Source: Candidatus Omnitrophota bacterium (lineage in GTDB: Bacteria; Omnitrophota; Gorgyraeia; Duberdicusellales; 4484-171). From it: a DNA stretch of 62,952 bases. Positions within the stretch are counted from its first letter, which is position 1; every line of letters begins with the position of its first letter. Shown in pieces: positions 62 through 60,442 of the stretch. The DNA is taken from assembly GCA_028692655.1 (NCBI GenBank), contig JAQUWY010000007.1, positions 1-62,952 of the forward strand. The letters are read 5' to 3'. A model generated the notes under the pieces. It saw nothing but the letters and a program-made list of their open reading frames with translations, had not been told where the DNA came from and ran no database searches. Made by a program: the position numbers and the translations under genes.

Positions 62-559
62 TCATCTTTTTTCAATCAAACTTCTTAGTTGTTTTCTCTT
101 TGTCCTCTTTGGAAAAACAGATGGGTAACCTAAAGCAATTACTGCCTCAAGCTCTAAATTCTTAGGAATTTTGAAATACCTGCGTAATTCATCTTTCTGA
201 TTGAGAATTTCACCCAGCCAGCAAGCACCTAACTTTTGAAAGTGAATATAAAGAAGCATGTTCTGAATACAGGCACCGATGGCCATTAAATCTTTTTCTC
301 GGTTATAAGAAGCCTTTTTATCCAAAAACACCAGGATGGCTTTATCCGCTTCTTTTATAACACTGCTGTAATGAGTAAACTCAGCCAATGAGTCTTTCTT
401 GGCCTTATCTAAAACCAGAAATTTCCAGGGTTGATTATTCAATCCTGAAGGTGCCCAGCGGCCGGCTTCTAAGATTTCATCAATTAACCTCTTGGCAATG
501 GTTTTCTTTCTAAATTTACGTATTGAGCGGCGGGTTTTGATAAGCCTTGAAACACTCAT
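62..559 (-). CDS. Nitroreductase family protein
   Basis: RRSIRKF and APSGLNNQPWKF motifs, GACWLG segment. Confidence 0.9.
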   Translation of the reverse strand: MSVSRLIKTRRSIRKFRKKTIAKRLIDEILEAGRWAPSGLNNQPWKFLVLDKAKKDSLAEFTHYSSVIKEADKAILVFLDKKASYNREKDLMAIGACIQNMLLYIHFQKLGACWLGEILNQKDELRRYFKIPKNLELEAVIALGYPSVFPKRTKRKQLRSLIEKR

Positions 560-754: not shown

Positions 755-773
755 GTTGATTTTTGTGTTATAG
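755..773 (+). mobile_element. Right half of attC-like (or attI-like) site; start of cassette 1
   Basis: GTTGATT-tttgt-GTTATAG; GTTATAG is the exact reverse complement of CTATAAC at 1616, as expected for the two ends of one cassette. Confidence 0.55.
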
Positions 774-1615: not shown

Positions 1616-1845
1616 CTATAACAGCTCAATCCAGCCGACCTAAGCCGCCGGCTGGTTGAGGATATCGTAACATTGGGCCGTCGAAGTTGCTATTTTATAA
1701 AGAATTTGTGTCCGGGCGCCTGAATATCGGGTTAAATCTTACTCAACTTTGTTTCGTAACTTTTAACCCGAAGCGCCTCGGACATAGTTCAGCTAATCCC
1801 GGCCTTCGGTCGGGAAAGTTTCAATAGCTAATTTTTGTGTTAGGC
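1616..1845 (+). mobile_element. attC-like site A (unusually long)
   Basis: CTATAAC-5nt-AATCCAGC ... GCTAATT-5nt-GTTAGGC directly after a stop codon; extra C in L'' equals extrahelical G on the bottom strand. Confidence 0.6.
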
Positions 1846-1858
1846 CAACGAAATAATA

Positions 1859-2446
1859 ATGGATAAATTTCCAAAACGGAAACTGACTAGATTAAAAAAA
1901 TATGATTATTCACAAACAGGCTATTATTTTGTAACCATCTGCACACAAAACCGCAAAGAAATATTCGCATCGATTAAAAATAATCAAATAATATTAAACG
2001 AATTCGGCAGAATTGTTAAAAAATCATGGTTGCAAATACCCGAACATTTTAAAAACATCGAATTGGATAAATATATAATAATGCCCAACCATATCCATAC
2101 AATTATAAATATTGTAGGGGCGGGGTCACCCCGCCCGTTAAAAAACCACGACAATGATGATAACAAAATAATTGGGTATAGTATCGGGCGAGGAAACCTC
2201 GCCCCTACAAAATTGGGCCAGGTTATGGCATTTTTCAAATACCAGACAACAAAACAAATAAATAAATTACAAAATAGGCCAGGTATAAAAATATGGCAAC
2301 GTAGATATCATGACCACATTATCCGTAACGATAAATCATTGAATAGAATACGTGAATATATTGATAATAATCCTAAAACCTGGGATAATGATATTGAAAA
2401 CCCCATTAGGTTAGGTGCAATAGAATCGGAATTGATTAATGTATAA
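1859..2446 (+). CDS. REP-associated tyrosine transposase (RAYT, Y1 HUH family)
   Basis: RLKKYDYSQTGYYFVTICT, MPNHIH (HUH), WQRRYHDHIIR, YIDNNP. Confidence 0.9.
   Translation: MDKFPKRKLTRLKKYDYSQTGYYFVTICTQNRKEIFASIKNNQIILNEFGRIVKKSWLQIPEHFKNIELDKYIIMPNHIHTIINIVGAGSPRPLKNHDNDDNKIIGYSIGRGNLAPTKLGQVMAFFKYQTTKQINKLQNRPGIKIWQRRYHDHIIRNDKSLNRIREYIDNNPKTWDNDIENPIRLGAIESELINV
2114..2208. repeat. Inverted GTAG-type REP doublet inside the RAYT ORF
   Basis: GTAGGGGCGGGGTCACCCCGCCC (2114-2136) and reverse-oriented GGGCGAGGAAACCTCGCCCCTAC (2186-2208). Confidence 0.8.
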
Positions 2447-2614
2447 CAACTCAATCCCCGCCTTCGCGTAAAGCTATGGCGGGCAGGCAGCCGGCTCATT
2501 CGGCGCGCTCCTTGGCTTTGTCAAGTCGCTTACTCAGAGCAAGCTCCCCTGCAGCTAAAGCGGTTTACCCTGAGCGAATGAAATGAGTCGAAGGGCTGAT
2601 TTCGGGTGTCAGAA
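2441..2614 (+). mobile_element. attC-like site B carrying two palindromic insertions
   Basis: GTATAAC-aactc-AATC[31 bp insert]CAGC ... GCTGATT-6nt-GTCAGAA; overlaps RAYT stop codon. Confidence 0.6.
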
Positions 2615-3486: not shown

Positions 3487-4413
3487 CTAAACCCACCAGT
3501 AGCCTAATTCTTTCAAAATTCTTGGCCGGTGCTGCCAATCACTAAGAACCTTTACCCATATCTCAAGATATACTTTCTTATCGTAAATCTTCTCTATTTC
3601 TGAACGAGCCAAGGTGCCTATTGCTTTAAGGCCACGGCCCTGCTTGCCAATTACTATCTTTTTCTGAGAATTTCTCTGCACATATATTGTTACTTCTATA
3701 TGCACCACCTTTTTCCTGTCTTTTATGGCTGATACCTCTACTGCTACTGAATGGGGCAGTTCCCTGTCCAAGGCCAGAAAAAGCTTTTCCCTGACAATAT
3801 CGGCTATTCTAAACTGTATAGGAAAATCGGTCAGAGTATCTGTATCATAGAATGGGCCTGATTGCGGAAGATTTTCAAGTAAAGCCGCTCTAAGCTCATC
3901 TATATTCTTGCCGGTCTTGGCTGAAACCGGAATAAACTGTGCTGAAGGTTTTTTACCAACTTTTTCATCCGCCTTTTTTTGCCAAGCTTCAATGTAGCTA
4001 TTTAGATATACGGATTTTAGGTCTATTTTATTTAAAACCATGATTACAGGGATATTTTGAGTACTGATAATATCCATTAAGCGGGATTCTTCTTTGCCGA
4101 TGCGCCGAGAAACATCAACAACATACACAATAATATCGCTACCTTCTATCGAGCGTTTGGAAATAACATTGAGATGCTCAGCCAGATGGTCCTTGAAAGA
4201 GTGCATCCCGGGAGTATCCACAAATACTATTTGAGCTCCTTCTAAATTTAATATACCTCGTATCTGATGCCGGGTAGTTTGAGGAATGGGAGAAATGATA
4301 CTTACTTTCTCTCCTACTAAAGCATTCATCAAAGTAGATTTTCCTGTATTCGGCCGGCCTAACACCGCCACAAATCCTGCTTTAAATTTTTTTTCGCTTT
4401 CTTTTGTTATCAT
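3487..4413 (-). CDS. era: GTPase Era
   Basis: GRPNTGKSTL, PQTTR, DTPG, NKID, C-terminal KH domain with GKQG. Confidence 0.97.
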   Translation of the reverse strand: MITKESEKKFKAGFVAVLGRPNTGKSTLMNALVGEKVSIISPIPQTTRHQIRGILNLEGAQIVFVDTPGMHSFKDHLAEHLNVISKRSIEGSDIIVYVVDVSRRIGKEESRLMDIISTQNIPVIMVLNKIDLKSVYLNSYIEAWQKKADEKVGKKPSAQFIPVSAKTGKNIDELRAALLENLPQSGPFYDTDTLTDFPIQFRIADIVREKLFLALDRELPHSVAVEVSAIKDRKKVVHIEVTIYVQRNSQKKIVIGKQGRGLKAIGTLARSEIEKIYDKKVYLEIWVKVLSDWQHRPRILKELGYWWV

Positions 4414-29509: not shown

Positions 29510-29745
29510 TGTATTATTCAAAAGTTAAGTTTACAGTCTACTCTATAACCGTATCATTTACCGTTAGAGGGTTGTACCTGCCTACCGGTAGGCAGGTAGC
29601 TGGAAACGGCTGTCGTTGAACGTTAATCATCTCTATTCATAAGATTTTATTAACGCAGCCGGCAAACAAATAACGATACGAGTTACGCAACCGTATACCG
29701 TTTGCCTTTACACAAAATATATAAACACATCTCCAGAATTATACA
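29510..29745 (+). mobile_element. MITE copy A (236 bp)
   Basis: TGTATTATTC..GAATTATACA imperfect ~26-bp TIRs; TTTTATC duplicated at 29503-29509 and 29746-29752. Confidence 0.9.
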
Positions 29746-54960: not shown

Positions 54961-55277
54961 AAAACTAAATATCTAAATTCTAAGCCCTAAATGTATTATT
55001 CGAAAGTTATGTTTACAGCCTGCTCTATAGCCGTATCATTCATCGTTAGAGAGTTGCGCCGGCCTACCGGTAGGCCGGCAGCTTGAAACGGCTGTCGTTG
55101 AACGTTAATCGTCTCCATTCCTAAGATTTTATTAACACAGCCGGCAAACGAATAACGATACGAGTTACGCAACCGTATACCGTTCGCCTTTACACAAAAT
55201 ATGTGAATATATCTTAAGAATTATACGCCCTAAACGAATTCATAGGGTTTGTTTAGGTTTTAGATTTTCGGATTTAT
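54961..55277. repeat. 7-mer repeat hairpin (CTAAAT/ATTTAG) split by MITE-B
   Basis: ctaaatatctaaattctaagccctaaa | cgaattcatagggtttgtttaggttttagattttcggattt. Confidence 0.65.
54992..55227 (+). mobile_element. MITE copy B (236 bp)
   Basis: Aligns end to end with copy A; CCCTAAA duplicated at 54985-54991 and 55228-55234. Confidence 0.9.
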
Positions 55278-60208: not shown

Positions 60209-60442
60209 TGTAAAATTGTAGAGATATGTTTACATATTTTGTATTGTCAAACGGTATACGGTTGCGTAACTCGTATCGTTATTCGTTTGCCGGCTGCGTT
60301 AATAAAATCTCATGAATAGAGACAGTTGACGTTCAACGACAGCCGTTTCAAGCTACCTGCCTACCGGTAGGCAGGCACAACCCTCTAACGATGAATGACA
60401 CGGCTATAGAGTAGGCTGTAAACATAACTTTCGAATAATACA
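60209..60442 (-). mobile_element. MITE copy C (234 bp, inverted)
   Basis: Reverse complement aligns with A and B; no target duplication visible. Confidence 0.88.

Follow-up and report, generated by a model that had tools for sequence, protein, structure and literature searches.

How does a recombination site come to carry a small palindrome at the very base that its recombinase contacts, and what does this mean for the gene beside it? The question is raised by the sequence that follows a RAYT-like transposase gene in an uncultured Omnitrophota bacterium. There, the original prediction had placed an attC site interrupted at 2457-2595 by two palindromic repeats which, by breaking the L'' box, may have locked the transposase cassette in place.

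The DNA analyzed here (the window, 62,952 nt) is contig C12 of a metagenome-assembled genome (G000) of 1.65 Mb in 62 contigs, with 40% G+C and a completeness of 91%. Five small co-oriented genes are flanked by a nitroreductase gene (62-559, minus strand) on one side and by era (3487-4413, minus strand) on the other; they are an unknown ORF, a HEPN-like ORF and the genes for a RAYT-like Y1 transposase, a Cys-rich secreted protein and a pyrimidine-dimer glycosylase. The gene for the RAYT-like Y1 (HUH) transposase is borne on a cassette (1859-2446, plus strand) and its product matches PF01797 at 27.4 bits against a cut-off of 23.

The attC sites of the window and the insert in site B

The intergenic sequences of the window have a common layout, with YTAAC, 5 nt and AATCC... 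at the 5' end and ...GATT, 5-6 nt and GTTAnnn at the 3' end. Sites adjoining the intI genes of relatives yield the consensus YCTAAC-N5-AATCCAGCCGACC...GGCGGCTGATT-TTTGT-GTTAnnn, in which L'' and L' pair as AATC-C-AGCCG-A-CC against GG-CGGCT-GATT; the two extra top-strand bases of the family L'' (C and A) are the classical extrahelical G and T of the recombining bottom strand. The L'' consensus AATCCAGC(C/G/T)GA is family-wide and is also found in arrays beside genuine intI genes, and the motif TAAC-N5-AATCCASCNGA gave 70 matches in 28 of 73 family genomes, the reversed control giving none. These motif scans, built on the local consensus, replaced a generic structural attC scanner of our own, which was dropped as too unspecific (438 scattered matches). 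Neither at the gathering threshold nor at permissive E-values over 1580-2680 did Rfam assign the insert or the attC sites to a family.

The leftmost site of the window is marked by its R' GTTATAG (767-773, plus strand), from which the first cassette starts with TTATAGG, complementary to R'' CCTATAA at 1615-1621. Site A (1616-1845, plus strand) has R'' CTATAAC (1616-1622), an L'' that is empty (AATC-CAGCCGACC, 1628-1640), a long variable region, L' AGCTAATT (1826-1833) and R' GTTAGGC (1839-1845). Site B (2441-2614, plus strand), which lies 3' of the RAYT-like cassette gene, also fits the family consensus in layout: R'' GTATAAC (2441-2447) overlaps the stop codon and is followed by the spacer AACTC (2448-2452), an L'' split into AATC (2453-2456) and CAGCCG (2488-2493), L' GGCTGATT (2594-2601), the spacer TCGGGT (2602-2607) and R' GTCAGAA (2608-2614). 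Its R'' fits the core motif RYYYAAC, whereas its R' is without the GTT crossover triplet of GTTRRRY. The family consensus otherwise ends in GTTAnnn after N5, and site B has GTC for GTT; since sister sites of its type keep GTT (R' GTTATGT or GTTAGAT), site B is a decayed member.

Cassette starts in such arrays are complementary to the R'' at the end of the cassette. This rule is obeyed at 8 of 8 positions by the first cassette of the window (G|TTATAGG at 767-774 against CCTATAAC at 1615-1622), by a second RAYT cassette on contigs C14/C18 of the same genome (GTTAGACC against GGTCTAAC), by the toxin-antitoxin cassette of C18 and by two cassettes of a sister genome. The RAYT cassette of the window reaches only 4 of 8 (GTTAGGCC against TGTATAAC), R'' GTATAAC of site B being non-complementary to the cassette start TTAGGCC, with point differences from the intact C14/C18 paralogue.

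The attC assignment of the original prediction was thus borne out by the box layout, by the family consensus beside intI and by the cassette rule within the array. With attC sites and CALINs the array shares the R''/R' and L''/L' boxes, the two extrahelical bases, the complementarity at cassette boundaries and the co-oriented small genes (HEPN-like, toxin-antitoxin, HipA-like). In relatives, arrays of this site type are linked to intI: 8 of the 35 same-family genomes searched, out of 60 relatives in all, have an IntI match of about 400 bits (cut-off 265) next to such sites. No integron integrase was found in the own genome of the window, where the best TIGR02249 match (90 bits against the same cut-off) is Xer-like and without the middle segment. 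The array is therefore a CALIN, a small integrase-less cassette array of which 2441-2614 is the last, decayed attC site. Site B differs from a typical attC site in its split L'', its R' with GTC and its non-cognate R'', and several sites with nested repeats reach 230-290 nt.

A further integrase-less array lies at the rlmN locus of the same genome, spread over L001 (G000:C18, 1-4700) and G000:C14 (13240-14129), contigs that overlap by 127 bp. It begins with the second RAYT cassette, followed by the toxin-antitoxin pair, a HipA-like cassette and other cassettes. At the rlmN locus of the sister genome (L233) only the first cassette is common (RAYT, 95% identical) and every other cassette is different, which points to recent turnover of arrays that contain filled sites.

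The 31-nt hairpin element in L'' of site B (2457-2487, plus strand; cccgccttcgcgtaaagctatggcgggcagg) reads CCCGCC-TTC-GC-GTAAA-GC-TAT-GGCGGG-CAGG, holds no ORF and stands at the extrahelical-base position. Its removal joins AATC to CAGCCG, and only then does the L''/L' stem form, AATC(C)AGCC pairing with GGCTGATT and leaving one extrahelical base. The insertion splits the canonical L'' exactly at the first extrahelical base, that is AATC^CAGC on the top strand and CTG^GATT on the recombining bottom strand. The claim that deletion of this segment restores the match to site A was confirmed, and the restored form proved to be the family-wide consensus of about 70 sites.

The same block recurs in the same place in one further attC site of the own genome (C18 2587-2616) and in three of the four attC sites of the sister genome (L151/L233), which in its backbone matches C14 at 97% identity. 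Each of the five filled sites comes after a different gene. When they were aligned with six empty sites, the difference appeared as a clean 31-column indel. In a pairwise alignment, site A (empty) and sister attC-1 (filled) are 85% identical with a single 31-nt gap at AATC^CAGC; identity is about 75% over the 75 nt at the 5' end and about 96% over the remainder, a mosaic that shows recombination inside attC sites. An empty site of the same end type as site B, with the ATCTC and TCGGG spacers as in C18b, site B and sister attC-3, was present at 2513-2583 of the metagenome contig L020, which had been found by a metagenome search with the RAYT protein (best match 50% identical, no close allele). 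No target-site duplication was seen in the filled/empty pairs of these two alignments, where the boundary is ambiguous by only 1 nt, and the insert therefore lacks the combination of terminal inverted repeats and target-site duplication that defines MITEs. The search for empty alleles in relatives yielded a homologous empty site (site A against sister attC-1) but none for site B itself: two other sequencing runs carry site B 100% identical, and the alleles recovered by exact-protein look-ups were all filled and identical to site B or to sister attC-3. The locus is present in the source metagenomes SRR22315505 and SRR22315506. The 31-nt insert is thus neither unique in the genome nor present in all homologous sites, the two findings that together would have spoken against insertion.

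The second hairpin, said to abut L' as another inserted repeat (2568-2595, plus strand), did not survive the analysis. According to the predicted minimum-energy fold, this segment is the 3' arm of site B's own stem, with a duplicated AATGA and running into L', and no insert: AATGAGTCG (2582-2590) pairs with the 5' arm CGGCTCATT (2492-2500, plus strand) of the variable-region stem in the folded site. Its self-pairing amounts to only 4+3 bp, and it occurs once in the genome, with a weak word-level likeness to CCTGAGCGAAGTCGAAGG at C6:27765; no homologous middle region was found with which to compare it. The extra length of the segment is explained by the tandem duplication of AATGA at 2577-2586 of the 3' arm, which creates a 5-nt bulge. 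The length of about 115 bp expected for the site without both pieces holds arithmetically (about 113 nt), but only the first piece is an insert. The proposed genome-wide scan gave about six copies of the first piece and none of the second beyond itself.

A hairpin family across bacterial phyla

The pattern CCCGCCTTCGC-N5-12-TGGCGGGCAGG was matched exactly at least 119 times, counting one genome per species, in more than 12 phyla and between unrelated flanks, while chance matches are estimated at no more than a few even for GC-rich genomes. The hosts include Verrucomicrobiota, Planctomycetota, many Patescibacteria, Acidobacteriota, Bacteroidota (including an isolate, Dawidia soli), Lentisphaerota and Kiritimatiellota, as well as Fibrobacter, several proteobacterial classes and Omnitrophota. 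Members are about 30 nt long and are built from CCCGCC, an internal loop, a short inner stem-loop, GGCGGG and a single-stranded CAGG(C) tail, 22 bases being identical across the more than 12 phyla. The only conserved flank base is the C after CAGG, present in 77% of copies among the matches listed. The inner stem is kept: 90% of copies and 27% of shuffles have at least 2 bp, and the stem lengthens with the middle. At up to three mismatches, 1-24 copies per genome were counted in 25 genomes (24 other hosts and the own genome), and the reversed-pattern control gave one match in total. Such identity across phyla points to an unrecognised and widely shared mechanism for the mobilisation or maintenance of very small palindromic DNA.

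The own genome holds about six copies, those outside attC sites lying on C47 (twice), C35 and C52. The copies at G000:C47 19369-19530 and G000:C35 200-260 sit in modules that regenerate tRNA 3' ends, the C35 hairpin directly 3' of a copy of ...GATTCCCGCCACCTCCACCA. A search with the strict insert pattern in 59 relatives, and with the general pattern in 72 family genomes, gave no match outside the own genome; within the Omnitrophota family the exact form is limited to this genus, and diverged forms occur in 1-4 copies in ten other genomes. Viral contigs scanned for the hairpin gave no match, and full-text literature searches with DNA words and encoded peptides returned no description of it. Spurious GC-rich peptides are annotated in uncultured bacteria, a class for which the hairpin would account.

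We also considered whether the insert is an abundant repeat of its own genome and rejected this, as the abundant families (CCTGCCTACCGGTAGGCAGG elements and AACCTTAACC arrays) differ in sequence. The former are represented in the window at 29577-29706, 55062-55188 and 60250-60364, where the CCTGCCTACCGGTAGGCAGG palindrome is accompanied by a AACGGTATACGGTTGCGTAACTCGTA segment; the family counts some 15 or more copies genome-wide and is unrelated to the 31-nt insert save for a shared GGCAGG. Tandem arrays of 6-12-nt repeats lie within 150 nt of 16.5% of hairpin copies, against 7.5% of random places in the same loci (L100-L218), examples being CTCGACAC on both sides of the hairpin in L143 and CAAAATT in L250.

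Several known systems resemble this family in part. Some REP families sit inside small target palindromes, such as GTAG-23 of Thermomicrobium roseum and CGTC-1 of Halothiobacillus neapolitanus (Di Nocera et al. 2013, PMC3733652), and they provide a precedent for the nesting of one hairpin in another. Like those REPs, the hairpin is a stem-loop in the range of 20-40 nt with an unpaired 4-nt end tag, dispersed, multi-copy, nested in palindromes and found in several phyla. Unlike them, it has a CAGG/CCTG tag in place of GTAG/CGTC, keeps its 22 identical bases from phylum to phylum, occurs in only 1-24 copies per genome and has a recombination site as target, and a dedicated, flanked RAYT gene for it was not found. 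The SDR repeats of heterocyst-forming cyanobacteria, described by Elhai et al. in Genome Research in 2008, are reportedly mobile palindromes of about 21-27 nt, nested in each other and in other repeats. SDR are restricted to one lineage and seem to differ in sequence, whereas the hairpin family crosses phyla.

Elements that target attC sites are known, the IS1111-attC insertion sequences and the group IIC-attC introns, which are about 1.3-2 kb in size. Both target integron attC sites in a site- and orientation-specific way, the introns inserting in the bottom-strand sequence (PMC11187229, PMC3001079). They encode a DEDD transposase or a reverse transcriptase, whereas the hairpin is 31 nt long, non-coding and not restricted to attC. 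Placed precisely on an integrase-contacted base, it would represent a third and far smaller kind of attC-targeting element.

Proposed insertion into folded DNA and competing accounts

Five insertions occupy one identical L'' bulge in the own and the sister genome, and a sixth attC site, in another genus (G006), carries a hairpin copy in its apex. In a planctomycete (G074, L260-L263), inverted copies of the palindrome CCCCCGGCGCAGC...GCGGAGCCGGGGG flank IS200-like tnpA genes; the 30-nt hairpin stands at the centre of three of these copies and is absent from one (the paralogous L262), which gives a filled/empty pair in another phylum. Among the 119 listed copies, nine have flanks that pair, within 5 nt of the element, over 6 or more consecutive bp, against 0.86% when flanks from different loci were paired together as a control (about one expected, Poisson P ~1e-6). 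The idea that small repeats target attC hairpins is upheld insofar as the hairpin recurs in six attC sites and is enriched in hairpins across phyla, but most of the at least 119 copies stand in non-integron contexts.

We consider it an even question whether the 31-nt REP-like hairpin was inserted into attC sites of this Omnitrophota genus in a targeted and repeated manner. Under this reading the hairpin would have colonised attC sites repeatedly, its copies showing a preference for existing DNA hairpins, in which they would land at unpaired positions such as bulges and apical loops. The mechanism of its movement would be structure-specific and act on single-stranded DNA, the first candidate for the enzyme being one of the Y1/HUH type. 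A wider reading is tentative and on balance doubtful: the whole ~30-nt family might be a structure-homing mobile element that enters unpaired nucleotides of folded hairpins (attC bulges and apices, IS200 end palindromes, other stem-loops) and, as a parasite of recombination sites, freezes integron cassettes. If true, a structure-homing hairpin would be among the smallest transposable units.

Against repeated insertion stands the distribution of the filled sites. All five L'' insertions are in two sister genomes, with the exact pattern absent from 72 other family genomes, and the inserts form one sub-family with GC[G/A]TAAAGC loops, at least 90% alike, so that they may all derive from a single ancestral insertion that spread through recombination or attC duplication. 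In the form that we find a real possibility, if not our expectation, a single ancient insertion entered one attC site, and the filled 5' half (R''-spacer-AATC-insert-CAGC) was then spread by homologous recombination or gene conversion between conserved attC ends and by cassette duplication. The mosaic of site A and sister attC-1, diverged in its 5' 75 nt and 96% identical thereafter, is what such exchange would leave, and the 5' half of site B is identical to that of sister attC-3 at 47 of 49 positions despite unrelated middle regions. However, the filled sites differ among themselves, with either TTTGT or TCGGG as the 3' spacer, 5' spacers of three kinds and variable regions that are unrelated; the G006 copy represents an independent attC insertion at another position in another genus, and the hairpin family is dispersed, with a filled/empty difference in another phylum as well.

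A functional account is improbable in our view. It would make the 31-nt hairpin a module of an attC sub-class, either a side arm for a lineage-specific recombinase or host factor or a modulator of bottom-strand folding. The hairpin is indeed conserved as well as the R and L boxes across sites with unrelated variable regions, the RAYT cassette of the sister genome, with a filled attC site, still has 8 of 8 complementarity between R'' and cassette start, and cassettes differ between the two sister genomes in spite of filled sites. Yet the hairpin is missing from all 70 canonical family sites, the intI-adjacent ones included, the same hairpin is common in non-integron contexts of other phyla, and site B has decayed independently, with GTC in R' and a non-cognate R''.

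The neighbouring transposase itself offers a further candidate. RAYT-like homologues are present in 26 of the 73 family genomes, and several of them directly adjoin canonical attC motifs (G015:C13 32912-33433; G013:C327 62678-63144; G025:C60 56775-57220; G011:C11 37043-37670), so that the RAYT gene is a recurrent integron cassette in several genera of the family. Many of the family copies are fragmentary or have stop codons. A 195-aa ORF beside intI in the relative G015, considered as a conserved RAYT first cassette, was rejected because its sequence is unrelated. Among genomes with the hairpin 21 of 24 have Y1_Tnp, and among control genomes 6 of 14, a comparison that ignores kinship. As to the flanking of a transposase gene, in G074 the hairpin is nested in the tnpA end palindromes, one copy of which is without it, and the RAYT gene of the window is followed by one copy only. 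The hairpins linked to the resident RAYT are GTAG-tagged and have other sequences; 2113-2210 lies within the ORF, and GGGnCAGGCATGCCTGnCCCCTAC is found in both L001 and L020. With respect to the usual marks of a REP, the insert has a hairpin with an internal loop, but its tail is CAGG(C)/CCTG rather than GTAG or CGTC, and its copy number is low (about six in the own genome and, at up to three mismatches, 1-24 in 24 others). Of the 26 family genomes that bear RAYT, 25 are without the exact hairpin, which is limited to this genus, and the resident RAYT is therefore not implicated.

It is thus very improbable that the RAYT-like transposase of the cassette has this hairpin as its cognate REP and seeds its own substrate beside its gene: the hairpin lies directly 3' of the RAYT gene in the window and in the sister genome, most hairpin-bearing genomes have Y1_Tnp and the architecture of a hairpin with a 4-nt single-stranded tag is REP-like, but the tag and the sequences of the GTAG-tagged hairpins of this RAYT differ, the other RAYT-bearing family genomes are without the exact hairpin, and three of the five filled sites follow genes unrelated to RAYT. 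A GTAG-tagged REP-like palindrome, GGGnCAGGCATGCCTGnCCCCTAC followed by AGGATAAT..TGATATAATATAAT, stands just 5' of attC in L001 (4527-4560) and L020 (1712-1745), after the HipA-like gene in the own genome and after a RAYT gene in the distant metagenome contig; it is this palindrome that may serve these RAYT genes as their true cognate REP.

Possible consequences for the RAYT cassette and nested repeats in attC sites

The integrase contacts the extrahelical bases, and excision is affected by which bases these are and how they are spaced (PMC3053210). With a 31-nt side hairpin in place of a flipped-out base, recognition by the integrase would be impaired, and the insert would add to the immobilisation of the RAYT cassette without being its sole cause. 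It is plausible that the insert locked the cassette, as originally proposed, but this is confounded by three other defects: site B has a mutated crossover triplet, GTC for GTT, its R'' does not pair with the start of the cassette, and the genome has no integrase gene. Each of these would alone immobilise the cassette, so the insert is one lesion among several. Filled sites nevertheless offer a natural experiment on the tolerance of attC sites for side branches and on the fixation of chromosomal cassette arrays.

The variable region of site A carries nested palindromes of other kinds. An 81-nt palindromic repeat (1710-1790, plus strand; GTCCGG..CGGGTTAAA...TTTAACCCG..CTCGGACATAGTTC) has copies at C13:10368-10449, C34:72457-72559, C46:31898-31978 and C24 near 1576, and also in sister attC-1. 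A small GC hairpin, CCCGGCCTTCGGTCGGG (1798-1814, plus strand), is preceded by AATC, and its start resembles that of the 31-nt element. The attC variable regions of this lineage are thus hot spots for nested palindromes. Such repeats would supply homology for cassette shuffling independent of the integrase, as the mosaic alignment with the sister genome suggests. The small GC hairpin takes the place of an A/T hairpin, AGATTTTTTC...GAAAAAATCT, that the sister genome and L001 (1745-1770, on C18) have there.
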